DNA of 64,000 bases from Mobula hypostoma (taxonomy: Eukaryota): NCBI RefSeq assembly GCF_963921235.1, contig NC_086097.1:72480001-72544000 (forward strand). Reading direction: 5' to 3'. Below are positions 11,858-54,357 of this stretch, piece by piece. Below the pieces are notes generated by a model. It saw nothing but the letters and a program-made list of their open reading frames with translations. It had not been told where the DNA came from and did not search any database. How positions within the stretch are numbered: position 1 is the first letter of the stretch; every line of letters starts with the position of its first letter. The position numbers and the translations under genes are program-made.

Positions 11858-12422
11858 AAATTTGTTTACACACAATACTAAGTCATATCTATTATTTTGA
11901 TGTGTTTGGAGTCATATCAAATCGCTTAAGAAGAGCAAGTTATTATTAAAAGTTGTATCTAATTTTATTTTAAGAACTGCGGTTGAATTCAAAAGACAAG
12001 CAACTGATTTATGTCTGTTTCATAGTCTGGATTAAGTATTAACATATCAAACACATTAGAAGTTTAAGGGAACTCATTATTATTTGATCCCTGAATTTAT
12101 GACATTTTATTTTCAAAAATTGTTATCAGTTACAATTAATAATTTTGCTCTACTTTTTATACTAATATGCATTGGTCTTTAAAGGTTTAAATTGAACTAG
12201 AATATTAATAAGTGTAGGGTAACAGAGGGATCTTGTTGCTTGTCACAGATCTTCTGGTCAGTGAAGAAACCAACATAACTTTGGTAACGGTTTAATCGTA
12301 GTAATTCTGTCCAATGTCAAGGAGAGGTTAGAATTCCTTAAGTTGGGAATAGTCAATACCTAGGAGTTCTGTGGTAGATGTGTTGCTTTCCTCTTGCCTA
12401 AACCAGGATTTAATCCAGGTTA

Positions 12423-12626
12423 ACGCACACAAAATAATGGAGGAACTCAGCAGGTTAGACAGCATCCACGGAAAAGAGTAAACGGTCAAAGTTTTGGGCT
12501 GAGATCCTTCTTCAGGACTCTTCTGCCCTAAACAAGTGTCTCAGCTCAAACATTGACTGCTTTACTCTTTTCCATGTTGTGTATGCTGCTTCGGATTTCC
12601 AGTATTTGCATACTTTCTCATGTTTA
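12423..12626. mobile_element. Short Penelope-like inverted pLTR remnant with 12-bp TSD
   Basis: TAATCCAGGTTA at 12411-12422 and 12627-12638; two decayed pLTR ends in opposite orientation, homologous to the 26.1 kb and 39 kb elements. Confidence 0.8.
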
Positions 12627-14739
12627 TAATCCAGGTTAGGCTGCATGCAAAAATGCCTTGATTCTAAAAACCTGAAAATGAAACCTAACACAGTGCTATC
12701 ATCAGCAATCATCCCACTTGAGAAAGCTGATCCTAGGACACAGTCCTGAAGAATTTTTGTAGAAATAATTTGCCTAAAATAAATAAACTATCTGCTTTTG
12801 TATGATATATAACCTCAATCCGTGTAATTTCCTTTTGATTCTAATTTCCTCACTATAACCAAGGTTCCTTGATGCCAGATTTGATTGAATGCTATCCCAA
12901 TACTATGTGCAGAGACCGTCTTTTCTCATCTGCGGGATACTGCACATTTGTTCATGCTTGAAGTTAGGCTGTAATGAAGCTTGAATCAAGTGATCTTGAC
13001 AGAATTTAAGGAAGTATTAGTGTACAGGCTGTTGGTGATTAAGTACTATTTGATAGCAGTGTCATTGACACTTCGCATCCGTTTGATTGAGACTAGATGG
13101 ATTGGGTCATAATTGGCTCGATTGGATATCTTCTGGCTTTTTGTTGGCAGCCCAGTATATTTTTCACTTTCAGCAAAAATGATAGAAATTCAAAGGTAGA
13201 GTCATTGTTTTATTTTAAATCTAACCTTATACTTACACCACTGATTTTGAACCCAAGAATCACAACATTAATATAGCTTGGGGATTTATAGATTTATGAG
13301 TTTGCTGCCAGTAACTGTATAGACTGATTGAAAACATAATACTGTGCTGTCAGAACATTGTTTTCCTGTTGTTAGACTATAATTTATTATTTATTAATAA
13401 TAAACTATACTAATTATAATTATTAATAATGCATTTGATCCTGAGATCAGCTGCTGGCTAAATCCCATATCTGTTTCCACCCTGTTATATTATTTGGCTC
13501 TGACCTGCCTCTGTTAATCTCCAGAAATCCTCTTATTTGCTCCTGACCATCTTCCTCCTTCAATAAATTTACTTAATTAGCCCTGATGTATGCCAGTTTT
13601 ACCCAGTATCCCATACTTGCTGAATCTAGTTGGCAAGATATGTTGGCTCTCAATTAAACTGGCTCAATTTTGTAATTATAATTATTATTTTTAATTCTGC
13701 TATGGTGTTGTCCCAACACCAATTTCCACAAAGCCCACACCACTATCTGTTACAGCTTCACAAGCTTTCAAGGCAACCTGAATTTTTGCAGGTCTGGCAG
13801 ATCCCTAATTTTAATTAAAAATCAGAAGACGTACCTTCAGCTGTCAAGATTCAAAGCTCAGAAGCTTCTTTCATGTATCTCTTCACACTTACTTCCTTCT
13901 GAGCTTCAGCCATGCCTTAAAACCTACCAGCTTATTGGAACTAATATATCGTGGATCAAATCTTGATTGATAAGGAGTATCATGGGATGTTTTACTTGTG
14001 TTATAAGTGAATTGATATTGCTGTTGTGATTACAGTTTTGAAAATAATGTGAAGGGTTAAGAACATATTGGAATGATAATTATGACTTTTTTAAAAACTT
14101 GCTCTTTATCAATCATTACGTAATCTACAAGGAGAGCTAAAAGTGAAATATTAAATGAAGACACAATTCAGTGGTAAAAGAATTATGGGAAATTTTGTTT
14201 TAAGTTTTCGAATTGTACTTTGCAGATGACTACTGTGACTATGAAACAGTAATGTTTCTATCAGCTAAACCATGATCTCATCAAGCTCTATGCAAAAAAT
14301 CAACGAACTTTGAAATTTGTTGCATTACTCAGAATATTTTTTCCACATTTGATGATCTACTGTGGTTTAAAAATATATGCTCCTAACAGTTAGCCTGCTT
14401 CTATGTTTTAGGAACTTTATGCATCCCCATCATTAACTTTAATCTATTTTACACAAATAATTTAATTATGTGAGCGTAGCCCAACCCAACCCTTCCATTA
14501 TTTTAATCTTACTCAGTCAATTCTCCCTAAATTTTATGCTCTTGTGTTTTCAAGTAAAATACAAATCAGAGCCTTGTTGAAGGATTTAAACTGAATTCCA
14601 AATGAAAATTAACAGAAGTTATGTACTCTGCAATTCCTTACGTGATACATTAGATTTCCATCAATATTCTGTTTGATATTCAATAACAGGATGTGACACT
14701 TGTAAAGCCTAATTACCTCTGTGAAATTGGTGCAGTGGG

Positions 14740-16339: not shown

Positions 16340-16637
16340 TGGTTAGTCCACATGTTTAAATGACTTTAGTTTTATGAGGAGGTGGTAAAGATGATTAATA
16401 ATAGTGAATTTTTATCAGAATGAGCTCTGGTAAAGCTTTCAATGAGATTACTCATGGTAGGCTGATCCTGAAAATTAATCCACATAGGATCCACAAGGAG
16501 CTGGTAAATTGGATACAAAATTGTTGAGTTATAGAGGTCAGAGGATAGCGGTGGAGGGCTGTTTCTCTGACTGGAGGTCCATAACCAGTAAGGTTCTGCA
16601 GGAGGGATCAGTGTTGGGTTCTCTATTGTGTGTAATA
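16340..16637 (+). mobile_element. CR1 RT fragment, 5' side of the Tc1 insertion (continues 18243-18352 and ~19690-19980)
   Basis: Removing the Tc1 and one TA restores LLCVIYTNDLDEYVGGLISRL, matching the CR1 RT LLFVIYINDLD motif. Confidence 0.85.
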
Positions 16638-18242
16638 CAGTGGCATGCAAAAGTTTGGGCAAATTTCTGTTACTGTGAATAGCTAAGCGAGTAAAGATGA
16701 CCTAATTTCCAAAAGGCATAGAGTTAAAGACGACACATTTCTTTAATGTTTTAAGCAAGATTACTTTTTTTATTTCCATCTTTTACAGTTTCAAAATAAC
16801 AAAAAAGGAAAAGGGCCTGAAGCAAAAGTTTAGGCACCCTGCATGGTCAATACTTAGTAACACCCGCTTTGGCAAGTATCACAGCTTGTAATTGCTTTCT
16901 GTAGCCAGCTAAGTGTCTTTCAATTATTGTTTGAGGGATTTTTGCCCATTCTTCCTTGCAAAAGGCTTCTAGTTCTGTGATATTCTTGGGCCGTCTTTCA
17001 TGCACTGCTCTTTTGAGGTCTATCCACAGATTTTCGATGATGTTTAGAGCAGGGGATTGTGAGGGCCATGGCAAAACTTTCATTTTGCGCCTCTTCAGGT
17101 AGTCCATTATGGATCTTGAGGTGTGCTTAGGATCATTATCCTGTTCTAGAAGCTATCTTCTTTTCACCTTTAGCTTTTTTACAGATGGTGTGATGTTTGC
17201 TTCCAGAATTTGCTGGTATTTAATTGAATTCATTCTTCCCTCTACCACTGAAATGTTCCCCATGCCACTGGCTACAACACAAGCCCAAAGCATGATCGAT
17301 CCACCCCCGTGCTTAACAATTAGAGAGGTGTTCTTTTCATTAAATTCTGCACCCTTTTTTCTCCAAACATACCTTTGCTCATTGCGGCCAAAAAGTTCTA
17401 TTTTAACTTCATCAATCCACAGGACTTATTTCCAAAATGCATCAGGCTTGTTTAGATGTTCCTTTGCAAACTTCTGACACTGAATTTTGTGGTGAGGACG
17501 CAGGAAAGGTTTTCTTCTGATGACTCTTCCATGAAGGTCATATTTGTGCAGGTGTCGCTGCACAGTAGAACAGTGCACTACCACTCCAGAGTCTGTTAAG
17601 TCTTCCTGAAGGTCTTTTGCAGTCAAACGGGGGTTTTGACTTTCCTTTCTAGCAATCCTATGAGCAGTACTCTCGGAAAGTTTTCTTGGTCTTCCAGACC
17701 TCAACTTGACCTCCACCATTCCTGTGAACTGCCATTTCTTAATTACATAATCAACTGAGGAAACGGCTACCAGAAAATGCTTTGTTATCTTCTTATAGCC
17801 TTCATCCTACTTTGTAGGCATCATTTATTTTAATTTTCAAAGTACTAGGCAGCTGCTTAGAGGAGCCCATGGCTGCTGATTGTTGGGACAAGGTTTGAGG
17901 AGTCAGGGTATTTATAAAGCTTTGAAATTTGCATCACCTGGCCTTTCCCAACGATGACTGTGAACAAGCTATAGCACTAACAAGCTAATTAAGGTCTGAG
18001 ACCTTGGTAAAAGTTATCTGAGAGCTCAAATCTCTTGGGGTGCCCAAACTTTTGCATGATGCTCCTTTCCTTTTTTTCACTCTAAAATTGTACAAAACAA
18101 AAATAATCTTGCTTAAAATGTTGAAAAGAATGTTTCATCTTTAACTTTATGACTTTTGGAGATCAGTTCATCTTCTACTCACTTAACTATTCACAGTAAC
18201 AGGAATTTTGACCAGGGGTGCCCAAACTTTTGCATACCACTC
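16638..18242 (-). mobile_element. Full-length Tc1/mariner DNA transposon, IR/DR type (1605 bp)
   Basis: TA at 16636-16637 and 18243-18244; termini CAGTGGCATGCAAAAGTTTGGGCA / TGCCCAAACTTTTGCATACCACTC; ~200-bp imperfect inverted repeats with inner copies of the end motif at 16822-16839 and 18038-18055. Confidence 0.97.
16847..17870 (-). pseudogene. Tc1 DD34E transposase pseudogene (~340 aa)
   Basis: MGSSKQLP..GYKKI (HTH), RSGRPRK, VLWIDEVKIELFG, KHGGGSIMLW, QDNDPKH, then 34 residues from that D to the E of IENLW, WPSQSP. One +1 frameshift near 17805 and stops at ~17426 and ~17153. Confidence 0.95.
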
Positions 18243-18469
18243 TATATACAAATGATCTGGATGAATATGTAGGTGGTCTGATTAGTAGGTTGGAAAAAAC
18301 ATGAAAGCTTATCAAGTTGTGGACAGTGAGGAATGATAGAAAAGGGTACAGGCCATAGAACAATTCAACACAGTAACTGGTCCTTCAGCTGAACATGTCT
18401 GTGCTGACCATGTTGCCAATCTAAACTGAACCAATCTGCCTGCATATGGTCTACATAAATTGGTAAAAA

Positions 18470-19670: not shown

Positions 19671-21842
19671 TTTTCCTCAATATACATGAATCAGTTCATC
19701 TCTGAATGCAAATTAATTGCACATGGGCTATGGAGTTTAATCTGGACGTGTGGATTTGCATTTTGTGAAGTTAGATACAACAGGAAAATATAAGCAAATG
19801 GCAGGATCCTGTGTAGCAACACACAGGAAAATCTGCAGATGCTGGAAATCCTTAGTAGCAATGAAGTTTGAGCATTTCTAGACATACATGGCGATAGCTC
19901 CTCTGAAGATGTCAATGCAATTGTATAGAGTAGTAAAGAAAATGAACTGCATGCTTGCATGCCCTTCATTAGTCAGGGCCTGTTCCTGCTCTATTATTCT
20001 ATGTTCAATGCATCTGGTACTGTTCACTCACACTCCTGGTTATTGGATGTGGAATAATATGCTTCTGCCGATTACCCACAGCAACACATGGGTGCTTTGT
20101 TATGACTGGTAGATCTTTTTTGACTTTATTCCTTTCAGCATGCCAGTAGTTTCCCATTGTATGCTGGATAGGTCCTAGTGTTAAAGGAGAATTTTGTCTC
20201 TATAAAAATTATATGGTCATCACTCTTACCAATTATTTTACATCTAGATACACTTGCAACAACGAGATGGGTAAGGGTGCAATCCATAAGGTTTGTCCCA
20301 AAATAATATATTGACTTTTCACGTAATTTAATTTTTCTGTACTCTGAGAAATGTCTTGGACAAGTTCACAGAGCAGATGCTTCAATAATTAGTGAAGCAC
20401 ATTTAGGAGCTGTCAATTGAAATTATACAAATAGGTGTTACTATGCTTCAGAAATCTTTAAATAGTTACTTATTTCAATGTGTAGCAGATTGAGTTGCTT
20501 CACATGACATTGTGCATCCTGCTCCTGCTGAAAGCAGGCTGAGATGTTTCTATCTGCTCCTGTGTTCCATCATATCCATTGCTGATCCTATTGGCAGCTT
20601 GTCATCAGGTTAATCACTTGGATTTTTACTGGTTCCTAGTTTGATTCTGGTATTTTGCATACTTCATTTGTAGCTTTGGGACAAAAATGGGCTTTTAACC
20701 ACACTACTGAATGATGGTTTTTTTTTTACTTCCTCCTGTTAACTGAGTTTATTCTTGGAGATTATTGTTGTTACCTTCTAAGGAATTGATTAAGTTGGTC
20801 TTTGTATATTGGTAACTGAACACTAGATGGCCCCTGCGTGAGAGTTTGCACGGTGTAGCATTGTCCTCTATTGCTTTGTTATTTTTTTTAATGGATATGT
20901 TCAGAGGGCCTGGAATTATTTATAAAAAGCAATGTGGTTATCATCACATCAATACAAACATTTGTCCTGACAAGCTGCAGCTCTTTTTAACTTTGACTTG
21001 CTGCATAGCATGCAGACCAAATATTCATAGGTCAATCCAGACCTTTATCATTGCTCCCCCTGTTTTCTGTAAAATAAATTGTGTCTTAAGAAGTTTTTAA
21101 ATTACAAAGGAATGTCTTGTTAGTATTGGTCTAATAAAAAGTAATTTTATTGTTAGCTTCGCACAACCTTGCATATCGGCTGTTGAGGGTTCAGTTCAAA
21201 GGGCATGCAGTTCACATGAATGACTAGTTTTTACTGTGTCATTGCCTGTTGCCAACATAAATTTGGCTGCATGCACTAAGCAACACCATCTTAGTTTATG
21301 AGCTATAGAACGTGAGCTATCTAATTCCACTGGAATGCAAACATTTACCCAGGATAGGTCATATATCCAGATTGTGTTTGGAGGCATCAGGGTGATCCCT
21401 GTTTGATGTCAAAATCTAGGAGCTACAATTTATTCTGAGTTCAAAAGTCGCAGTAATAAACAAAAAACACTTGATCCAGACCTGATATAAGCATGTTGGA
21501 TTTTAAATGATTCCAAGAGTAATCAAACAGACCATCAAACATTGGAACAGCTGTGAAGAAGATTTCACATCTTGGCATTAGAAGGATGTTACTTGCCTTA
21601 ACTTGACTATCCATTTTCTGACTTACTTACAAAGTCCGTCATAAAAACCACTCCCCCCAAGCCCCAACCAGTACCTTACACAAACTGTATATGTGCTGTC
21701 TTTTCTACAGAACTATTAGATGCAGCAGGGAATATCTGTGTTGTATATGAAGTAATGCTGCTCAGCTAGTTCACTTATTTTTTACTTTGTAAGTCTTTCA
21801 TTGCCCTCCCTTAGTCCAAATACGTACCGGGTAGGTTAATTG

Positions 21843-24849: not shown

Positions 24850-25565
24850 AAGCAGGTGGCAAGTAGCATGCAATCTGTGCATCTTGTAGGCAATGACCAT
24901 CTCAATAAGGTAGAATTGACTACCTACTCTTGCCATTCAATGGCATTGCCATTGGCAAATTCCCCTGGGAGGTGCTGGGAGGTGACTATTGATCAGAAAC
25001 TCAACTGGGCCAACCAAATGTATGCCAAGACTGCAACACTATGAGTCTGATTATCCTACAAGTGACACGACAGTGATGTTCCTTCATCTAAAAGGCATAA
25101 ACAAAAAGTGTAATGAAATAATTTAAACCTGTTGAGTGAGCAACACTAGGAAGCTTGGCAACATCTAGAATGTTGAAGCCTGCTTGATTGGCACCTGTTC
25201 CATCAACCTAACTGTTCACTGTCAGTAAGTTGTGGCTACAGTGTGGACCATCTAAAAAGTGCATGATAGTTACTTGACTGGGCAACTCAGAGCACCTTCC
25301 AAACCCATGACTTATGCCATTGAGTCAAAAAGGTGGAATCACTTGGGAATACTGCCACCTACAGGTTTTTGAACTGTCTGACATGGATGTACAGGTGATT
25401 ATTGCTGGATCTAAATCATCGATAACTCTTCCCAAAGTACTTTTCCCGCAGGACTGCAGTGGATCAGGAAGCCAGCTCACCATAAACTTCTCAATGTAGT
25501 TAGGGTTGGGTAAAAAGTACTGGCCTCGGCAATGACATGCACAGCCTGAAGAATAGTTGGGTAAA
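24850..25565 (+). mobile_element. Old LINE (probably CR1 group) 3' fragment
   Basis: Remnant VTIDQKLNWANQ (RT C-terminus); homologous to minus-strand fragments near 2330-2980 and 14740-15480. Confidence 0.55.
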
Positions 25566-26198
25566 TAAAAACTCATTGAAAGTGACTTTAAATTCATCTT
25601 TTTAATTTAAACCATGGGTGCGTGCCTCCCAAACTCTGAGATCAGGAGTATAACAGGGCATTTCTCAGCCACATCCAAACTTAAACTCATTGTAAAATTT
25701 GCAGCCTCAAGGCTTGACAAAAGGTCATCTTGCTCTGAGAGGCTTAAACATCAAATGACAAGAAAAATAAATGTAAATCTGGAAGTCAAATTCAAGATCT
25801 GCTGAGGGCAAGATCAGAGGAAATCAAGTCTGTTGACCAAGAAAATTACAAGAGGTCCAGAAAGCCATCTCACAAGCGGTGGCAATTCCAAACTAAATGT
25901 GATTCAGTGAGGGATGCTTAACAACTGTGGCTTAACACTAAGTGACATTAGTGACAATAGGGCTTCGAGAGATCAGAGATGGAGAGAGTCAGCAACTTTA
26001 AATTCCTTGCTGCAATTATTTCAGAGGACCTGTCCTGGGCCCTGCACATAAGTGCAATTATGAAGAGTTCACGGCAGTGCCTCTACTTCCTTTAAAAACG
26101 CAAGCAACAGGAATTCTGCAGATGCTGGAAATTCAAGCAACACACATAAAAGTTGCTGGTGAACGCAGCAGGCCAGGCAGCATCTCTAGGAAGAGGTG

Positions 26199-26240
26199 CA
26201 GTCGACGTTTCAGGCCGAGGCCCTTCGTCAGGAGTAACTG
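26199..26240 (-). ncRNA. Minimal type I hammerhead ribozyme motif (Penelope pLTR)
   Basis: Minus strand: CAGTTACTC-CTGACGA-AGGGCCTCGGCCT-GAAA-CG-TC-GACTG. Confidence 0.75.
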
Positions 26241-26924
26241 AGGGAAGAGTGAGTAAGGGATTTGAAAGTGGGAGGGGGAGGGGGAGATCCAAAATGATAG
26301 GAGAAGACAGGAGGGGGAGGGATGGAGCCAAGAGTTGGACAGGTGATAGGCAAAAGGGATACGAGAGGATGATGGGACAGGAGGTCCGGGAAGAAAGACG
26401 GCGGGGGGGAGGACCCAGAGGATGGGCAAGGGGTATATTCAGAGGGACAGAGGGAGAAAAAGGAGAGTGAAAGCATTTTAATTCAACATCCCATTCCCAT
26501 TCTGACATGTCTATCCACGGCCTCCTCTACTGTAAAGATGAAGCCACACTCAGGTTGGAGGAACAACACCTTATATTCCGTCTGGGTAGCCTCCAACCTG
26601 ATAGCATGAACATCGACTTCTCTAACTTCCGCTAATGCCCCACCTCCCCCTCGTACCCCATCTGTTACTTATTTTTATACACACATTCTTTCTCTCACTC
26701 TCCTTTTTCTCCCTCTGTCCCTCTGAATATACCCCTTGCCCATCCTCTGGGTTCCCCACCCCCCTTGTCTTTCTTCCCGGACCTCCTGTCCCATGATCCT
26801 CTCGTATCCCTTTTGCCTATCACCTGTCCAGCTCTTGGCTCCATCCCTCCCCCTCCTGTCTTCTCCTATCATTTTGGATCTCCCCCTCCCCTCCAACTTT
26901 AAAATCCCTTACTCACTCTTCCTT

Positions 26925-26966
26925 CAGTTACTCCTGACGAAGGGCCTCGGCCTGAAACGTCGACTG
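26925..26966 (+). ncRNA. Minimal type I hammerhead ribozyme motif (Penelope pLTR)
   Basis: CTGACGA 26934-26940, stem II 26941-26953, GAAA 26954-26957, GUC triplet ending at 26961, stem I partner GACTG. Confidence 0.75.
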
Positions 26967-28044
26967 CACCTCTTCCTAGAGATGCTGCCTGGCCTGCTGC
27001 GTTCACCAGCAACTTTTATGTGTGTTGCCTCTACTTCCTTAGGGGTTTCAGAAGATTCAGCATGATATCTATAACTTTGACTAACTTCCATAGACTGGCT
27101 GCATCATAGCCTGGTATTGAAACACCGATGCCCTTGAATGGAAAATCCTACAAAAAGTAGTGGATATGGCCCAGTCCATAATGGGCAAAACCCTCCCCAC
27201 AGTTCAGCACATCTGCACAGCGCATTGTAACAGGAAAGCAGCATCCGTCGTCAGCAATCCCCATCACCCAAGTCATGCTTTCTTCTTGCTGCTGCCATCA
27301 TAATGAAGGTACAAGAACCTCAGGACTCACACCACCAGGTCCAGGAACAGTTATTATCCCTCAACTATCAGGCTCTTGAACCAGAGGGGATAACATCAGT
27401 TGCTCCGTCACTAAACTTTTCCCACAATCTATGGACTCACTTTCGAGGACTCTTCATTTCATATCCATGATATTTATTGCTTATCTATTTATTATTATTA
27501 TTATTATTATTATTCCTTTTTGTTATATTTGCACAGATTGTTGTCTTTTGCACACTGTTTGTCCACCCTGTGGGAAAACCAATTTCCCCTGGGATCAATA
27601 AAGTATGACTATGACTATGTTGGTGTGGTCTTCCATTGATTCTATTACGGTTATTTGACTTATTGAGTATGCCCACAAGAAAATGAATCTCAGGGTTGCA
27701 TATGGTGACGCATATGTACTTCAGTAATAAACTTACTTTGAAGATCACAAATAAAATGTGATGGTTATTAACAAGGGTTGAGGGCCTGAACCTCTATTTC
27801 CTGAGGACCTGATAATTCTGAATATAAAACGATGATCATTGAGGAGTGGGAACTGTTTGCAAAAATGATGTCCAGCATTTGGATAGTCAGTGTTTTGAGT
27901 GAATGTGGTCAAAATAGCAAAGACAAATTATCTGGAGGAGGAAACAAATTCTCCAGCTTTACAATCATATGTTATCAATGCTCTTTTAATTTCTGGTTTC
28001 TTGTGTTTGTTTGAAAACTCCACCACTGGAAGCTACCAATAAAT

Positions 28045-37900: not shown

Positions 37901-39273
37901 TAATACAACTCTTCATCTGAATCAATTGTAAAAGGCTGTGCTTTTCAATTGAAACACAAACACATAATTTTAACTGGATGCATGTTCTGTACTTTGCTGA
38001 GACATCTGGATCTACAGCCACTTCTCAAGATTTGCTTGATGAGCGACCTGAAACTTTTAACTTCCATTTCTGAAGGTAGCAGTTTTACTGAAAACACAGC
38101 TGCAATTATTCTGAACACTTTAAATCAGAATTACAACCATTCCAGCAAGAGCTCTGTGACACTTTTTTTTTAACCATGGTTAAATTTAGAGTTGTTGAAT
38201 GGACTCAGTGCTATTGATATCTCACTGGAGTAACTCTCAAAATACACTGTTTGCTTTGAGAGGCAATTGCACAGCAGAATTCTTCCTGATGGAAAACCAG
38301 TCTTGCTCCACTGGATTTATTTAGATGGGCCTCTGTCTTCTTCAAGTTTGTGTGAAGTCTTTAACTTTACAACCAGTTCCTTTAGAAAATTTGTTTGCAT
38401 TTTCATCCACAATCTCAGTAATTAACAGTCTCAACAGTTCCTCATTACGAAACATGTTCTGATGATGTACTTAATGGTCTGAATCTTACTGATTTTTCAA
38501 ATAGTTCCAGTGCTCATATGAGCTCATTCCTGAATTCTGTTTGCATACACTCCAATACCAAAGTTAGAAGAAATAAGCCAGAAGTTGCATCTGATTTTCC
38601 TGTCCATCACTAAACTTGGCATGAGTCTAGGAGAAGGGTCAAATGCACAAGGGTTGTCTGGTGTATGTAGTGCACTGTTGATTGTATTTTTCTAATTGTT
38701 TTAAAATTAAACATGATTTAAGTGTTATTTTAATTTCTGTAGCTTGTATTTTATTTTATTACAATAGGTTTCTACATACTTCTGATCAGAAACATTTAAA
38801 GATTATTAAAAGGCCCTGACTAATTGAGAGTTGTTGAAGGGTCATAGGCTTTGACGAGGGAAAGATATCATCAAGATCTGCTGTCTGAGGCCTAGTATCT
38901 GCTCAGAGTCCAACCAGTTCATAAGGTGGCCCAGGGAGCCAGTCTATTATAATCACAAAATAATCTGCAGTTGCTGTTGTCAAAGGAACACTCACAATGC
39001 GCTGGAGGAACTCAGCAGTCAGTCAGCATCAGTTGAAAAGATTAGTCGACGTTTCGGGCCAAAACCCTTTGTGAGGACTGAAGGAAGAACTTTGGGGAGG
39101 GTTTGAAGAATGCTGGTAGTTGAAAAAAACAGTAATTTTACAGACAAAGGGGTGGTGGAGGGGAAGCAGGGAGGTGATAGGCAGGAGAACAATGCGAATT
39201 TGTAGAAGGAGGTGGAACTATGAGGGAGGTGATGTGAAATTGGGATGGAGGAAGGGGGGGAGGAGGGAGGGAA

Positions 39274-39600
39274 TTACCGGAAGTTGGAGAATTTTATGTT
39301 CATACCAAGGGGCTGGAGACTACCTAGACGGTATATGAGGTGTTGCTCCTCCAACCTGAGTTTAGCCTCATCATGGCAGAGGAGGACGCCATGTATGGAC
39401 ATATCTGAATGGGAATGGGAAGCAGAGTTGAAGTGGGTGGCTACTGGGAGATCCTGTCTGTTTTGGCGGACGAAGTGGAGGTGCTCGACAAAGCGGTCCC
39501 CCAATCTGCGTCGGGTTTTGCCGATGTAGAGGAGGCCGCACCAGGAGCACTGGATACAATAGTTGACCCCAACAGATATGCAAGTGAAGTGTTGCCTCAC
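39274..39600 (-). pseudogene. GIY-YIG endonuclease domain of a Penelope-like element (5'-truncated, RT absent)
   Basis: FTCISVGVNYCIQCSWCGLLYIGKTRRRLGDRFVEHL..PVATHFN..LEEQHLIYRLGSLQPLGMN; domain is open across its length. Confidence 0.9.
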
Positions 39601-39785
39601 CTGGAAGGACTGTTTGGGGCCCTGAATGGTGGCAAGAGAGGAGGTGTAGGGACAGGTGTAGCACTTACACTTACAGGGATAAGTGCCGGGTGGGAGATCA
39701 GTGGGGATCTATCGTGGGAGTCTTTAAAATTGCTGTTTTTTTCAACTACCAGCATTCTTCAAACCCTTCCCAAAGTTCTTCCTTC

Positions 39786-39821
39786 AGTCCTGAAGAAGGG
39801 TTTCAGCCCGAAACGTTGACT
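39786..39821 (+). ncRNA. Minimal hammerhead ribozyme motif with GUU triplet
   Basis: AGTC-CTGAAGA-AGGGTTTCAGCCC-GAAA-CG-TT-GACT; the mirror copy at 39044-39079 (-) has a mutated core (CTCACAA). Confidence 0.6.
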
Positions 39822-40004
39822 AATCTTTTCAACTGATGTTGACTGACCTGCTGAGTTCCTCCAGCGCATTGTGAGTGAGCCAGTCTATTAGATGTCTTGC
39901 ACCCACGGTTTTCAGCAAATCCGAGTGCAACACAAGAAATAACATTAATAACGGATAGATTGAGCAGGGTATTGGCCATTGTCCTTTATCCCCGGTACTA
40001 TGTA

Positions 40005-40670
40005 AATTCAGATTCCAATACTACTTCAGAATCAGAGCTACTTTTACCATTACTCATGTATGACATGAAATTTGTGCTTTATAACCACAGTACAGTGCAA
40101 AGGCATAAAAATCTATAAATTACATAATTAAATAATAGTGCAAGAAGTGGAATAATAACATAATGTCCATGGGTTCATGGACCTTTTAGTAATCTGATAG
40201 CAGAGGGAAAGAAGCTAACTGCCTCCTGAGTGAGGCTCCGGTACCTCCTCCCTGAAGGTAATAACAACTTGAGGGCATGTCCCAGATGGTGAGGGCCGTA
40301 AATGATAGATGTTGCATTCTGAGGTACCACCACTTGAAGATATCCTCAGTGTGAGGGGGGTTGTATCCGTGATGGAACTGGGTGAGTCTACAACCTTATG
40401 CAGCCTCTTGCAATCCTGTGCATTGGAGTCTCCATACCAGCCTGTGATACAACCAGTCAGAATGCTCTCTGCCACAAATCTATTGAAATTTACAAGAATC
40501 TTTGATGACATACCAAATCTTTTCAACTCTTGATGAGGTAGAGTAGCTGGCCTGTCCTCTTCATGATTGCATCAATGTGCTGGGCCCAAGATTGATCCTG
40601 TGAGCTGGAACTTGCAGCTTACCTTTTCTACCACTGACCTGTCATTGAGGATTGATGTGTGTATTTCTGG
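40005..40670 (-). mobile_element. Rex1/Babar-type LINE 3' fragment
   Basis: KRFGMSSKILVNFNRFVAESILTGCITGWYG (ORF 40215-40526); (TTCTGA)n tail. Confidence 0.88.
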
Positions 40671-42339: not shown

Positions 42340-43245
42340 TAATCAGAATCAGGTTAAGTATCACTGACATATGTGAAATTTGTTGTTTTGCAGCAGCAGT
42401 ACTTTGCAATACATAATATAAATTACAATAGGAAATATATCTTTTAAAAATTAAACAAGTAGTGCAAAAATAGAGCAAAATAGAATATTGAGATTTTGTA
42501 CACGAGTTAATTGTCCATTCAGAAATCTGATGTTGGAAGGAAAGAAGCTGTTGGTAATGCATTGAGTATGTGTCTTCAGGCTCCTGAACCACGTCCTTGA
42601 TGGTAGCAATGAGAAGTGAGCATCTGTTGGGTAATGTGGGTCCTTAATAATGGGTATGCCTTTGTGAGGCATCCCCTTTTGCTGGGGAGGCTAGTTCCTG
42701 TGATGGAGCTGGCTGAGTTTACAGCTTCCGACAGCTTTTTCTGATCCTGTGCGGTTGCTCTTCCATACCAGATGGTAATGCAACCAGTTAGAATGCTCTC
42801 CATGGTACACCTGTAGAAATTTCTGAGAGTCTTTGGTGTCATACCGTGTCTCCTCAAACTCCTGAGGAGATATAGTTGCTGTTGTGTTTTCTTTGTAATT
42901 GTATCAATCATGTTGGGCCCAGTATTGATCTTCAGTGATGTTGACACCCAGGGACCTGAAACTGCTCACCCTTTCCAATGCTGATCCCTCAATGAGGACT
43001 GCTGTGTTTGCCCTCGACTTTCTCTTCTGGAAGTCCACAATCAATTCTTGGCCTTATTGATGTTGAGTGCATGGTTGTTTTTCAATACCACTCTACCAGC
43101 TGATCTATCTCATTCCTGTGAGTCTCCTTGTCACCATTTGAAATTCTGCTAACAATAGTTGTATCATCGGCAAATTTATAGATGGCATTTGAGATGTACC
43201 TAGACACACAGTCATGGGTGTAGAGAGGGTAGAGCAGTGAGCTTA
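42340..43245 (-). mobile_element. Rex1/Babar-type LINE 3' fragment including KFADD motif
   Basis: ITKKTQQQLYLLRSLRRHGMTPKTLRNFYRCTMESILTGCITIWYG (ORF 42576-42947); IYKFADDTTIV at ~43155-43185 (-). Confidence 0.9.
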
Positions 43246-46367: not shown

Positions 46368-47080
46368 TAGAATCAGAATATACACTTTCTTATGATGTGA
46401 AATTTGTTGCAGCAGCAGTATAGTGCAAAGATACAACATTATTATAAATTGCAAACTAAATAGTGTAGAAAGAGAATAATGAGGTATAGTTTATGGGTTC
46501 ATGAACCATTCAGAAATCTGATGAGGAAGGAGAAGAAACTGTTCCTGAATCATTAAGTGTGGGTCTTCAGGTCCCTGTACCCCCCTCCCTCATGGTAGTA
46601 ATGAAGAAAGGGCATGACGCAGATGATATGTGCCCTTAACGATGGCTTTCTTGAGACAGTGCCTCTTGGGATATTCTCAGTAGTGGGAAGAGTTGTGCCC
46701 GTGATGGAGCTGGCTGAATTTACGACCTTCTACAGCCGCTTGCAATCCAACACACTGGATCCTTCATGCCCGGCTGTGATGCAACCAGTCAGAATGCTGT
46801 CCTCTGTATAAATTTGCAAGAGTCTTGGGTGACATAACAAATCTACTCAACTCCTGATGAAATAAAGCCGGTGGCACTCTTTCTTTGTTATCGCATTAAT
46901 GTGTTGGCCCAGAACAGATCTTCAGAGATGTTGGCTCCTAGGAACTTACTCAGGAAAATGCTTCGCCTTCCTGAAGTCCAGAATCAATTCCTTAAGCTTG
47001 CTGATGTTGACTGTAAGTGCACTGGTGTAACACCACTCAATCATCATTGATCTCTCTCTTGTATACCTTCTTAATGTTAT
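46368..47080 (-). mobile_element. Rex1/Babar-type LINE 3' fragment
   Basis: Collinear with 40005-40670 (CAACCAGTCAGAATGCT.., AGAATCAGA tail). Confidence 0.82.
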
Positions 47081-47262: not shown

Positions 47263-47420
47263 CAAACAAGGGAGAATCTGCAGATGCTGAAAATCCAAGC
47301 AACTCACACAAAATGCTGGAGGAACTCAGCAGGCCAGGTAGCATCTATGGAAAAGAGTACAGTTGCCGTTTCAGGCCGAGGCCCTTTTGCAGGACTGGAG
47401 AAAAAAAAGATGAGGAGTAG
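47263..47420 (-). mobile_element. Solo Penelope-like pLTR end with dead hammerhead core
   Basis: AATCTGCAGATGCTGAAAATCCAAGCAACTCACACAAAATGCTGGAGGAACTCAGCAGGCCAGG..; on the minus strand the core reads CTGCAAA..GAAACGGC. Confidence 0.85.
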
Positions 47421-48922: not shown

Positions 48923-49216
48923 TAAAAACAAACAGCTGGAGAAACTCAGCAACTTGGAGCAGCATCTGTGGGAATAAGAAATTTTCAAAATTTCAGGTTG
49001 AAGTGTTGCATCAGATTGAGAGTGGGTAAGAAAGATAGCTGGTATAAAGAGGAGGGGCGGGGCTGAGATAAGGGCTGGTCGGTGATAGACGGAACAAGGA
49101 AGGCATGGAATCATGAATAGAGTGAGCCAAGTGTGGATGGCTAGAAGTGGGAGATATAAACAGGTGGTTGATGGGGTGAGGCATACAAAGGAAAAAGAGA
49201 CAAATGGAACCAGGTG
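48923..49216 (-). mobile_element. Old Penelope-like pLTR, left part (resumes ~54577-54820)
   Basis: CAGCTGGAGAAACTCAGCAACTTGGAGCAGCATCTGTGGGA resembles the other pLTR ends; purine-rich body continues after the Nimb element. Confidence 0.65.
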
Positions 49217-49736
49217 GGCTGGGGGTTAGAAGTTGGTTGGCTGGGCGTGGCTCTGCAGGAACTGCTGGACCTTGATGCGTGAATGTGGTTTGGAACTTGT
49301 TGAGGGAAAGAGAGTGGGGAAGGAACGGGAATTGCTGGGAGGGGGTCATGTGGGTCCGGTAATGACAGACAAGGTGAGGGGGGGGTTGAGGGAAAGAAAG
49401 TGGAGAAGGAGCGGGATAGGGATTTGGGATCAGAGGTAGGCAGCTGGGGAGAGATGGATTATTATGAAAGGAGAAATAAAGGGAATTAGGAGATAGTGAG
49501 GGGATGGATGAATGAAAACCGAGACAAAGGGAATAAAAGAATAAGAAATGACAGTGGAGAGAGCTCTGAAAGTGAGGAAGATGAACAAGTTCGGTGAGAA
49601 GCTGTTGTCATAAGTAGGTTTAATGAGGAGGCTCAGGGACATATGAAGAAAATTAACCCATTTGTGCTAACAACAACTCTGGCAAAATAAGATATGGGAA
49701 ATAGTATTTGCAAAAGTCCTTAATGATGGCAACTTA

Positions 49737-50585
49737 TTGATAAGATGTGCAAATGAGGAACAACTTGAGAAAGCACTCAAGCTAAAAGAGACAGGAAAAT
49801 GCAAGATGGAATACACTGGGAGGGTGGGAGCACAAAATAGTGGTTGTAAAGGAGTGATCACAGGAGTACCAATGAGTATAAATATGGAGGAGTTAAAGAG
49901 GAATATCAAAGGAGGGAAAGTAATGAATGTTCAAAGACTGAAAACAACAAAGAAGGGAGTGAAAAAGGAAAGTGAAACAGTATCGATTGGATTTGAAGAA
50001 GAAAGAGTGCCAAGGAAGGTGTTCCTGGGTTTCATCAGTTACCCAGTAAGGGTGTATGTGCCAAAGCCATTGAGGTGCTATAATTGTCAAAGGTTTGGAC
50101 ACATAGCTAAAAACTGTAAAGGGCAGAGGAGATGTGCTAGATGTGGGGGTGATCATGAATATGGAAAGTGCGGAACAGGACTGCAACCAAAATGCTGCAA
50201 TTGTGGAGGAGCTCATAATGTGACATATAGTGGGTGTGAGGTTATGAGACGGGAGAATAAAATACAAGAAATAAGAGTGAAAAGAAAGATCACTTATGCA
50301 GAAGCTGTAAGAATGTCAAGAGAACAGAATAATGCTCCTAATGAACAGGGAGCAATAGGGAAACGAGAGATGCAACAAAGAACAAATGACAAGATTTATG
50401 AACACAAAAAAGCTCTAGTAACATTCATTGCAGGAGTGATTAATAGTACGGCTGAGGTAAAATCAAAAAGTGACAAAATTCAGCTGGTGGTAAAAGCAGC
50501 AGTAAACCATTTAGGGTTAGTAGGACTGACATGGGAGGAAGTGAGGGTGAACCTCACTAATCAGTCAAGCCAGGAAGTGTCATGA
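49737..50585 (+). pseudogene. ORF1 gag-like nucleic-acid-binding protein, open C-terminal 282 aa (N-terminus disrupted)
   Basis: Three zinc knuckles: CYNCQRFGHIAKNC, CARCGGDHEYGKC, CCNCGGAHNVTYSGC; ITYAEAVR motif. Confidence 0.92.
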
Positions 50586-50602
50586 GTTGGTTAATACTAA
50601 TT

Positions 50603-53600
50603 ATGGTGATTCTTTTACAATGGAATGCAAGGAGCTTACTGGCCAATGGCCAGGAATTCAAGCACTTTATTAAAGAAATGGTTGTAAAACCAGATGTAGA
50701 GTGTATTCAGGAATCTTGGTTGAAACTAACTTTAGACTTTGTGGAATATGGGTATACAATGATAAGGAAAGATAGAAATCTAGGGGGAGGAGGGGGTTGC
50801 GCTATGTTAATCAAGCAAGGTATACCATATAGGGTACTGGAAAAAGGAGATGATCAGGAATACATCGTGGTGGAAGTGTGGGAGAGAGGGGAGGGAGTGG
50901 TTATAATTAACTTCTACAATCCGTGTAAAAGGTTGGATTTGGACAGCCTATTAAGGATACAAGAACAAAACAGACATAAAGTAGTGTGGTGTGCAGATTT
51001 CAATGCTCATAGCACAATATGGGGGGATCAGATTACAGATCCAAATGGAAAGGTAATTGAAGATTTGATGGAAGAAAGGGATTTGGTGTGTATGAATGAT
51101 GGTAGCGGCACAAGGATAGGTATAACAACAGGAACTGAGTCAGTGTTAGATATTACGTTAGTGTCTAATACCTTGGCTGGCATTAGTAACTGGGGAGTTT
51201 GGACTGCTTCAACAGTAGGCAGTGATCACTACCCAGTTTTATGTTCAGTGGGTAAAAGAGTTGAAGTAAGACCAGGTGGCGGACCCCCAAAGTGGGTGTT
51301 TGGAAAAGCAGATTGGGGTAAGTTCCAGGAGCTGAGTGAAGAAGCATTGACAAAGATTGATATTTCTGGAAATGTAGATGATTTAAACAGTCAGGTGACT
51401 TCAGCAATTATTATGGCAACAGAAGGATCTATACCCAGGAGTAAAAATAGGATGAATAGGAAACTGGTACCATGGTGGACAGAGGAATGTTGTCAGGCTG
51501 TAAAAAACAGAAATAGAGCATTCAGGCTAGTTAAAAGAACCCATAATATGCAGCATTTGGTTCAATACAAGAAAGCACAGGCAGTGGTGAGAAGAACTAT
51601 ACGTCAAGCTAAAAGGGCAAGTTGGAGGAGTTTTTGCAACAAAATAGGAAGAACAACACCTGTGGGAGAGGTATGGGGAATGATTAAGAGGATGGGAGGA
51701 GATAGAAGGGAATGGGAATATCCAGTAATGTTATCTGAGGAGGAAACAGCAGTTTCCAGTAGGGATAAGGCTGAGATCACGGCCAAGTCATTTGTACAGA
51801 TACACAGTTCAGAAAATTTGTCTGAAGAAGGGAGAAGGAGAAGGGAAAGAAAAATGAGCCAACACCCAGGTGTGTTAAACAGGAGGGAAGGAACAGATGA
51901 TATAATTGATGATCCATTTACGTTAGCAGAAATGGTGAGAGCAATAAAGAGATCGAGACCAACCTCCCAAGGGAAAGATCTGATATGCTCTGTGATGCTA
52001 AAAAATCTAGGAGAAGGAGCACTGTCGAAGTTGCTGCATTTTTATAACAGAGTGTGGGAGGAGGGAAGATTACCAAGTGCATGGAAAGAAGCAGTAGTAA
52101 TTCCAATAAGGAAACCTGGCAAGGATCCGTCAAAACCCACTAGCTACAGACCAATTGCATTAACATCAAATATATGTAAGATAATGTAAAGGATGATAAC
52201 AGAAAGGTTATCGTATGAGCTTGAGAAGAGGGGAATGCTGGCAACTTATCAGAGTGGTTTTAGAAAGGGAAGGAATTCCATGGGCTCAGTGATAAGGTTA
52301 GAGACTGAAAGAAGGAAGGCCCAGGCAAATAAAGAATCGGTAGTTGCATTATTTTTTGACATTGAAAAAACCTATGATATGATGTGGAAGGAAGGATTAT
52401 TAATTAAACTGCACAAGATGGGGGTTGGTGGGAGAGTTTTTATTTGGATTAAAGATTTTTTGTTTGGTAGAAAAATTCAAGTTCGGATTGGGTCAGAATT
52501 ATCAAAACAGTACTTAGGGGAAATGGCCCACCTCAAGGTAGTGTGCTTAGCCCATTACTTTTCATCATTATGATTAATGATGTCTTCACAAAGGTACCAG
52601 TGGATATAGTTAGGTCACTGTTTGCGGATGATGGGGCCTTGTGGAAAAGAGGCAGGAACATGGAGCATATAATCAGGAAACTACAAGAAGCAATTGATAA
52701 AGTGGTGGAGTGGGGTTATGATTGGGGATATAGATTTTCAGTAGAAAAAACTCAAACTGTATTTTTTACCAGGAAAAGAATTGAGGTAGGGAAGAAGTTA
52801 AGGATGTATGGGATTGAATTAGAAAGGGTTGGATCATTTAAATTTCTGGGAGTTATATTTGATTAACGATTAACATGGGCAGACCATATCAGGAAAGTTG
52901 AGGAGAAATGTAAGAAAGTAATAAATGTGATGAGATGTTTGACTGGTAGGGAATGGGGAGCACATTGTTCAGCGTTGAAGAGAATTTATGTGGCCTTAGT
53001 GAGATCTGTGTTGGACTATGGAAACATAGCATATGGATCAGCAGCTTGGTCTCTTATAAGGAAACTGGATGTGATTCAGGCTCAGGCTTTGAGAGTGTGC
53101 AGTGGGGCTTTTAAAACGTCACCAGGATCAGCCCTACCGGTAGAAATGGGAATAATGCCTTTGGAACTAAGAAGGATGCAACTGATGGCAAACTACTGGG
53201 CTGACTTGCAGGGGCACAATGATTCTCATCCTGCTAAAGGAATGTTGCAGGAGTGCTGGGAAAATGGGAGGTTTCAGAGGGATACCTTTAGTCGGGTAGG
53301 GAATGATATCGCGAAAGAATGTTGAGTGTTTGATCTAAGGATAAGTCCTTCAGTAGTTTATCCGGTTGTAGCTCCATGGAAGCTTGTATGGCCTGACATA
53401 GACTGGCATTTGTTAGAGGTAAAAAGGAAAGGAAGATATAAAACTGATTTGGTAAATGCATTTAACTGTCACGTGAAGGAAAAATATAGTGATTATACTC
53501 ACATTTATACAGATGGTGCGAAGGAACCTGAAACAGGAGTGACAGGGTTTGGGGTGGTTATACCAGCAAAAGAAATTGGAATCAGCAGAAGAACATCTAA

Positions 53601-54357
53601 TGAGTTAGGGGTGTTTATAGTGGAGATGCTGGCAGTGTTGATTGTGTTGCAATGGGTGCAGAAAGCCAGACAAGTCAAAGCATTGATATGTTCAGATTCA
53701 TCCTCAGTTCTAGCAAGTTTAAGATCTTTTCACACAAACAGTCGGCAAGATGTACTTTATGAAGTCCTTCAGTTAGTTGCAAGAATTGCAAATCAGGGAG
53801 GTCAGATAAAATTTCTGTGGGTTCCAGCACATGTAGGGGTGAAGGGGAATGAGAGGGTGGATGAGTTGGCGAAGAGGGCGTTAAAGAAAGAAAACATAGA
53901 AATGCACATTAGTATCAGTAAAGCAGAGGCGAAGTGTGTAATCTGGGAAAAAAATTAACCAAATGTGGCAAGAAAGATGGGACAGGGAGGGGAAAGGGAG
54001 GCATTTATATCAAATACAAAAAAGTGTTGCAGGTACTAGGGTAGGTAGTGGAAACAGAAGAGAGGAAACTGTGTGGACTAGGTTAAGGCTGGGACACTGT
54101 GCATTAAACAAAACATTGAAAATGATAGGGAAACACCCGACAGAATTGTGTGAGGAATGTCAGGAAGAGGAGTGAGTAGAACATGTAGTTCTGAGTTGCA
54201 GGAAGTGTGGGATACAGAGAGAGATGATGAGTATTAAACTAAGGGAATTGGGGTGCAGGAATTCACATTAAAAGTGTTGCTGAGCATGGGTGAGAGAGCA
54301 CAGGTTAGGGTATTTTTAGCTTTCTTAAGGGGTACAGGGGTTTTTTATAGGATATGA
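50603..54357 (+). pseudogene. ORF2 polyprotein: APE endonuclease, reverse transcriptase, RNase H, C-terminal zinc finger
   Basis: LLQWNARSL, IQESWL, DFNAHS, SDHYP; YRPIALTS, QSGFRKG, FFDIEKTYD, LFADD; IYTDGAK, CSDS, WVPAHVGVKGNERVDELAK; CEEC..EHVVLSC. Stops at 52187, 52864, 53323 and 54173; frameshifts near 52520, 53950 and 54250. Confidence 0.96.

Follow-up and report, generated by a model that had tools for sequence, protein, structure and literature searches.

The window analyzed here, a 64,000-nt stretch of DNA, contains at 26093-27028 what is very probably a truncated EN+ Penelope-like element (PLE) insertion, in which two copies stand back to back between target-site duplications (TSDs), likely placed there in one event and likely since subject to neutral decay, with both of its hammerhead motifs predicted to be inactive. 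The insertion lies between two matching copies of CTCTACTTCCTT, at 26081-26092 (+) and 27029-27040 (+); the TSD is 12 bp long, or 15 bp from 26078 if the TGC common to the element end is counted. The initial annotation had drawn the insertion as 26093-27040; the start stands, but the element stops at 27028 and the rest is the right TSD.

The two copies are 5'-truncated and meet head to head. The left copy (26093-26470, −) has a shorter 5' end than the right copy but 44 extra bases at its 3' end. This tail (26093-26136, −), delimited by arm alignment, is missing from the right copy (26474-27028, +), which begins within the endonuclease frame, 53 codons short of the stop. Arm alignment likewise defined the left arm (26137-26470, −), an inverted 5'-truncated pLTR/3'-UTR copy, and the right arm (26695-27028, +), the 3'-UTR/pLTR of the sense copy with its tail-less end. 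Each arm is 334 bp long. They are 96.2% identical over 338 columns by BLAST and differ by 6 substitutions and 4 small indels in a global alignment; all 12 differing columns lie outside a 105-bp identical arm end. At the head-to-head junction, 3 nt (26471-26473) fit neither side in register and are either untemplated or a 4-nt slip. Contigs have loose ends behind 26470 and before 26474, and neither microhomology nor a palindrome was seen where the truncated 5' ends meet. No tandem array was seen at the locus. Inverted 334-bp pLTR arms, a left-only 44-nt tail and a 12-15-bp TSD together make up the layout of an EN+ PLE insertion.

The target was a decayed LINE-like repeat. Its left part (25971-26092, +) resembles 40535-40603 at 74% and has repeat-level depth and contig loose ends at 25971; its right part (27029-27201, +) resembles 40350-40458 at 70%. 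The left flank reads ...KSSRQCLYFL and the right flank LYFLRGFRRF..., and the LINE frame is continuous across the insertion. The TSD encodes LYFL. These four duplicated codons have a single counterpart, LYLL, in a sibling LINE fragment at 42579-42965, which reads ...QQQLYLLRSLRRH... and matches PF09004, in our reading a LINE-associated piece. The repeat with the PF09004 piece occurs in at least four decayed copies in the window (40059-40603, 42468-42965, 46391-46945 and 25971-27201), and the 26-kb PLE sits inside the last of these.

We then turned to the coding remnant in the right copy. It comprises the C-terminal 53 codons and stop of a GIY-YIG endonuclease (HFNSTSHS...DFSNFR*; 26474-26635, +), 5'-truncated and including the final H region (HFN) of the endonuclease CCHH motif, and is followed by the start of the 3' untranslated part, found in the right copy only (26636-26694, +). 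The remnant matches 9 proteins among 17 candidates. The best is P0001, labelled Mobula hypostoma, at 94% identity, and seven further matches are labelled Hypanus or Hemitrygon; a ray is therefore the likely host. Similarity to P0001 runs on through the 3' sequence of the locus (tblastn 26474-26767, 93% over 98 aa). The remnant alone has no Pfam match and is 83% identical to the 39-kb copy described below. P0001 contains YIDD, a C-x4-C-x2-C linker and a CxxC-containing GIY-YIG motif, YCVRCSRCGLLYIG; its match to PF01541 (E 4.6e-4) is below the curated cut-off, as are PF01541 matches in four of the six relatives scanned. In all five long relatives fetched, a YIDD-like RT motif is followed by a C-x3/4-C-x2-C linker and then by a GIY-YIG motif with two cysteines, although Pfam gave no RT match in the scanned relatives despite the YIDD upstream of the endonuclease. 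The 39-kb sibling has the whole GIY-YIG motif and the zinc linker; the 26-kb locus starts downstream of the linker, which is missing there, and truncation has removed the RT. The remnant, P0001 and the 39-kb sibling together thus display the C-terminal GIY-YIG endonuclease with CCHH motif that characterizes EN+ PLEs. A Penelope-like origin, as first proposed, is borne out by the TSD, the tail and the endonuclease remnant.

A CX2-5CxxC linker between RT and EN marks Neptune and Nematis as opposed to Penelope/Poseidon (PMC8557442). By this definition, the element is an EN+ PLE of Neptune or Nematis type, its clade being assigned by the linker motif in its relatives. Neptune is favored over Nematis because the vertebrates covered by a preprint (bioRxiv 10.64898/2026.07.22.740005) had Neptune and Poseidon and, among those covered, no Nematis. 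The family is very abundant, with a summed contig depth of 0.6-15 million on the element (a depth, not a copy number), compared with 13.9 for the unique flank in run X1. Three of the proteins (P0003, P0004 and P0008) carry a PLE endonuclease end inside annotated ray host-gene isoforms, of a kinase-domain gene, ATP synthase subunit C3 and VKORC1L1, which reflects either exonization or annotation error.

A profile search for the 3' module found six strong copies and one weak copy in the window, the strong ones forming four loci. Three of these four (12411-12638, 26081-27040 and 38936-39890) are inverted pairs with a one-sided tail and a 12-15-bp TSD, and the tail of the 26-kb element has homologs at 38950-38988, 47.3 kb and 12.6 kb. 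The insertion at 38936-39890, the second inverted one, belongs to another subfamily; its arms (38989-39145 and 39720-39877) are 93% identical, its tail is on the left and its TSD is GAGCCAGTCTATTA. It contains a 144-aa open frame with the zinc linker and a whole GIY-YIG domain, 81% to P0001. In its right motif, core and stem I are intact but the site is GUU; the core of its left motif is broken. The third inverted insertion (12411-12638) is older and very short, with TSD TAATCCAGGTTA and the tail on the right copy; both of its copies begin roughly where the hammerhead does, at its upstream edge, and both cores are decayed. At 47274-47419 (−) lies a solo 3' PLE fragment with tail. It begins some 25 nt upstream of a hammerhead core, itself broken, and has C-G and G.U stem II letters in common with the 26-kb copies; no TSD was found. 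Smaller traces are a very short tail-only match at 19823-19849 and a weak, decayed 3' module at 48928-49005 (E 4e-5). The window also holds a broken non-LTR retrotransposon of the RNase H-bearing LINE kind (49671-53958), with zinc knuckle, AP endonuclease, RT and RNase H pieces, and a Tc1/mariner-type remnant (16631-18250), in which a transposase HTH (17429-17806) lies between inverted repeats 16631-16839 and 18038-18250 (76%).

Each arm of the 26-kb insertion bears a minimal type I hammerhead motif, at 26199-26240 (−) in the left arm and at 26925-26966 (+, core 26934-26961) in the right. The two are identical over 42 nt: CTGACGA and an unpaired A are followed by a stem II of 4 bp that is capped by a CUCG loop, then by GAAA-CG-TC and GACTG. 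In hammerhead residue numbering, C17 is 26961 (+) and 26204 (−), and cleavage would be predicted 3' of each. A full minimal-hammerhead descriptor matched three times in the 64-kb window (26934 +, 26231 − and 39790 +), compared with a mean of 0.01 and a maximum of 1 in 100 dinucleotide shuffles, and a family pattern matched four times in the window versus never in 100 shuffles. Both arms show the core features CUGANGA, GAAA, a palindromic 15.2-16.2 and a UH cleavage site. Stem II forms in folding with its 4 bp and the unpaired A is present, its closing pair being G.U (26942/26953 in the right arm) instead of G10.1-C11.1. Stem I, in which 4-5 bp are expected beside the core, has two pairs and then a central C x C mismatch (26931 x 26964 in the right arm; 26234 in the left); the full stem is present with the family letter and in the 39.8-kb sibling. 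Three of seven aligned hammerhead-homologous sites keep the full core.

The initial annotation had reported these two oppositely oriented motifs, and its letters, coordinates and predicted cut 3' of 26961 agree with the analysis. Its observation that both arms read TTACTC also holds, with AGTC in four of the five other aligned hammerhead-homologous sites, as does its statement that a self-complementary ACGT replaces stem III, which fits the descriptor in PMC4209133. The description of the cores as intact is true of the catalytic core but not of the G.U pair at 10.1/11.1 or of the C x C mismatch in stem I. An Rfam scan of the whole window gave no match at E<=1, so the hammerhead call rests on the descriptor and the literature rather than on a curated model. 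A pattern scan of metagenome contigs also gave no match. Among six distinct window copies, few and decayed, 85% of cells were paired compared with 15-48% when the alignment was slid; these same copies show no two-sided changes and two pairs with one-sided changes, no excess over shuffles.

To place the stem I defect within the family, contigs of four runs (X1, X5, X9 and X13) were aligned to 25000-26691 at 85% likeness. The defect is a single substitution at 26234, with no indel there among the differences listed (40 of 124; some differences in X1 and X5 are uncounted). A 4-nt insertion, suggested by alignments to the 39- and 47-kb subfamilies, was rejected on these same contigs. The pairing letter at 26234 accounts for 97.1, 98.6, 99.7 and 99.6% of depth in X1, X5, X9 and X13, respectively. 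Position 26220 also has a minority letter (97.3-99.7% of depth differ), which converts a stem II U.G to C-G. Both minority letters are common to the right arm, at 26931 (=26234) and 26945 (=26220). Among the differences listed, the left arm alone has minority letters at 26242, 26335, 26371 and 26402, the first of which directly adjoins the motif.

Folding models, which omit tertiary contacts and protein assistance, put the stem I pair probabilities at 0-0.06 for the motif as it stands; the family letter raises them to 0.57-1.0, and the 39.8-kb sibling has 0.85-0.93. With the antisense arm omitted, the inner pairs of stem I reached at most 0.008 in all seven transcript starts tested, and the probability of an active-like fold was 5e-6. 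The core palindrome as a duplex contributes only -3.1 kcal/mol. In the isolated 42-mer, stem II formed at 0.99-1.0, and the MFE fold was in a non-catalytic register and not unusually stable (z -1.6). Both motifs are accordingly modeled as inactive: neither is predicted to cleave, because each RNA would contain one sense motif without stem III, stem I is broken, and read-through RNA would zip into a 334-bp duplex. Three observations count against this reading or against decay. Both arms keep a perfect catalytic core despite about 10 differences elsewhere; a U.G of the family's stem II has become a C-G pair here; and one PLE hammerhead cleaves only with protein (PMC11167929), which bears on any verdict from protein-free folding.

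How could such a structure form? From PLE biology (PMC11167929) we infer that an element-encoded RT-endonuclease, supplied in trans, would have nicked both strands of the decayed LINE about 12 bp apart, and that a cDNA would have been primed from each nick. One cDNA would start at the tail end and halt after about 380 nt, the other would start 44 nt further in and halt after 555 nt, and the truncated ends would then be joined head to head. The second hammerhead would thus be a passenger of the duplicated 3' end. Of 15 contig joints listed (of 286), seven connect an arm with the endonuclease part on a single strand, the pattern that further junctions of the head-to-head kind would leave; at 85% likeness and with every side shorter than 30 nt, they are a weak indication. 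Between the arms there are 6 substitutions in 334 bp (1.8%), and between the flanks of organisms A and B 10 in 854; because the two divergences are similar, the insertion appears young and there is a hint that it may predate the A/B split. One contig from organism B (X5 record 18) spans 110 nt of flank and 28 nt of the element, under the 31-nt bridging rule, hinting that A and B may share the insertion.

The two shared rare letters suggest that an already damaged template was probably copied twice, and we lean slightly toward a single template for both cDNAs, with the stem I change already in it. The claim of a single template for the two arms, made earlier from stem I alone, therefore gains from the two letters but is weakened by their position: both pairs (26220/26945 and 26234/26931) lie inside the 105-bp identical end, where conversion would look alike. 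Evenly balanced, in our estimate, is the broader proposition that ribozyme-dead Penelope RNAs are mobilized in vivo, both arms having come from one stem I-broken RNA, with paired-arm insertions in rays offering a natural record able to settle double priming and the need for the hammerhead.

The strongest competitor, tentative but a good deal more than a formality, is that an insertion of the same type had intact motifs when it arrived, and that the changes in stems I and II came about afterwards in one arm, from which gene conversion or hairpin repair carried them to the other. With every differing column outside the identical end, a terminal run of 105 bp has a chance of 0.02-0.07 for 7-10 events, which speaks for such homogenization, but an equally long run anywhere has a chance of 0.24-0.53. 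The left-arm-only changes at 26242, 26335, 26371 and 26402 would have escaped it, one of them right beside the motif, and conversion is not general, since the motifs of the 39-kb pair differ at several sites.

Unlikely, by comparison, is an origin of the inverted arm by self-priming or template switching on nascent cDNA or antisense RNA (snap-back) instead of from two target nicks. Such an origin would also account for the shared rare letters, and PMC3846280 takes palindromes at head-to-head junctions as a sign of self-priming, but the junction here has neither palindrome nor microhomology. Moreover, the inverted copy cannot be a DNA copy of the other arm as it stands, because only the inverted copy has the 44-nt tail. 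Copying of one damaged template from two nicks remains the reading we prefer.

The initial annotation had further suggested that fold-back could switch cleavage off. Fold-back itself is complete in silico: in the folding models, the read-through RNA of each strand collapses into a single long duplex (MFE -764 and -784 kcal/mol), and in that of the + strand every one of the 42 sense-motif bases pairs with the other arm at a probability of 1.0. That the locus is a working antisense switch, in which a one-arm RNA cleaves and read-through fold-back turns cleavage off, is nevertheless very improbable. The perfect cores, the strong stem II of the isolated 42-mer and the complete fold-back would all suit a switch, but no on-state is predicted even with the antisense arm omitted, given the near-absent inner pairs of stem I, the negligible active-like fold and the weak palindrome duplex, and the switch is therefore unsupported. 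Each transcript would have one sense motif, and in PMC4209133 minimal motifs did not cleave singly and cleaved little as dimers. In the head-to-head arrangement, transcription from either side would reach the antisense arm first, so the block by fold-back would be constant and would not switch. The inverted layout, present three times in the window, is the standard product of Penelope integration, and recurs at 12.4 and 39 kb with broken cores. As to transcription of the locus, run X13 may be RNA; its flank cover is one 176-nt contig at depth 2.7 and was given no weight either way. There was no Pfam match in 150 of 164 ORFs of 62-99 aa (the 14 inside PLEs were left out), and among 26 longer frames, of 45 ORFs of at least 100 aa, Pfam matches were to transposon-type families only; this counts against a switch, although an intron would still be compatible. 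A literature search of partial coverage, with supplements outside its scope, found nothing on fold-back control. If loci of such layout are read through, the resulting long double-stranded RNA could feed editing or small-RNA silencing.

That the inverted repeat is an assembly artifact has a negligible probability: inverted structures trouble short-read assemblies (PMC8557442) and no contig from the four runs bridges the whole stretch, but the arms differ at 12 columns with family-minority letters in one of them, the TSD flanks the element inside a collinear LINE fragment, and the endonuclease piece between the arms is unique.

Taken together, the single locus matters little, and the usable point is methodological: should rare letters that break the ribozyme often prove common to both arms of inverted insertions, this would speak, from in vivo events, for a single template and a dispensable ribozyme. 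The in vivo role of PLE hammerheads is termed unclear in PMC8557442. Minimal motifs need a dimer (PMC4209133) and, in one tested vertebrate case, the element's protein (PMC11167929). In that case, PAc/Poseidon of Anolis carolinensis, hammerhead mutants still insert in vitro, so cleavage is dispensable there; the lizard protein nicks and extends both strands, and RT begins at two sites bounding the tail. Like the 26-kb element, PAc is a vertebrate PLE with a hammerhead upstream of the tail. Its tail is bounded by the two RT start sites, whereas here the start sites are deduced from the copy ends. It also differs in being a Penelope/Poseidon element without the zinc linker, whereas relatives of the 26-kb element have the CX2-5CxxC linker.

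The motifs themselves resemble the metazoan PLE minimal hammerheads of PMC4209133 in their CUGANGA/GAAA core, the unpaired base before stem II, the palindromic 15.2-16.2, the lack of stem III and a family stem I of 4-5 bp. That study reported in 2014 pairs of minimal hammerheads on opposite strands, separated by about 100-700 bp, a range that includes the 684 bp between the two motifs here. They differ in that stem II has 4 bp versus 7-8 in Schistosoma, that stem I of this copy is mismatched and that G10.1-C11.1, highly conserved according to the same study, is G.U in the 26-kb copies. Its main text does not name sharks or rays. A literature search for PLE hammerheads in these animals, of partial coverage and with supplements, which may list such families, outside its scope, found none, and the retrozyme preprint (bioRxiv 10.64898/2026.07.22.740005) covered one chondrichthyan. 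The non-LTR retrozymes of animals in that preprint share with our locus a type I hammerhead in PLE-derived non-autonomous sequence. They consist of tandem units joined head to tail and have two or more motifs on the same strand, whereas the 26-kb locus is inverted, has one motif per strand and retains an endonuclease remnant; it lacks the two or more consecutive tandem units with complete motifs that define a retrozyme.

The closest counterparts are the inverted-pLTR insertions of EN+ PLEs (PMC8557442), including Pen2/Pen2a_Av (PMC3846280), in which an inverted, adjacent, 5'-truncated copy, a one-sided 30-40-bp tail and 8-10-bp TSDs have been described. Head-to-head truncated copies, flanking inverted repeats, a tail at one end and a short TSD are common to these and to the 26-kb locus. 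Here, the tail is longer (44 nt versus 30-40) and so is the TSD (12-15 bp versus 8-10 in Adineta), the junction has no palindrome, no RT remains and the host is likely a ray. The three inverted pairs in the window and these published precedents make the layout an ordinary one. Both the layout and the pair of opposite-strand hammerheads have already been published, and the 26-kb locus is a further copy, with two more within 14 kb.
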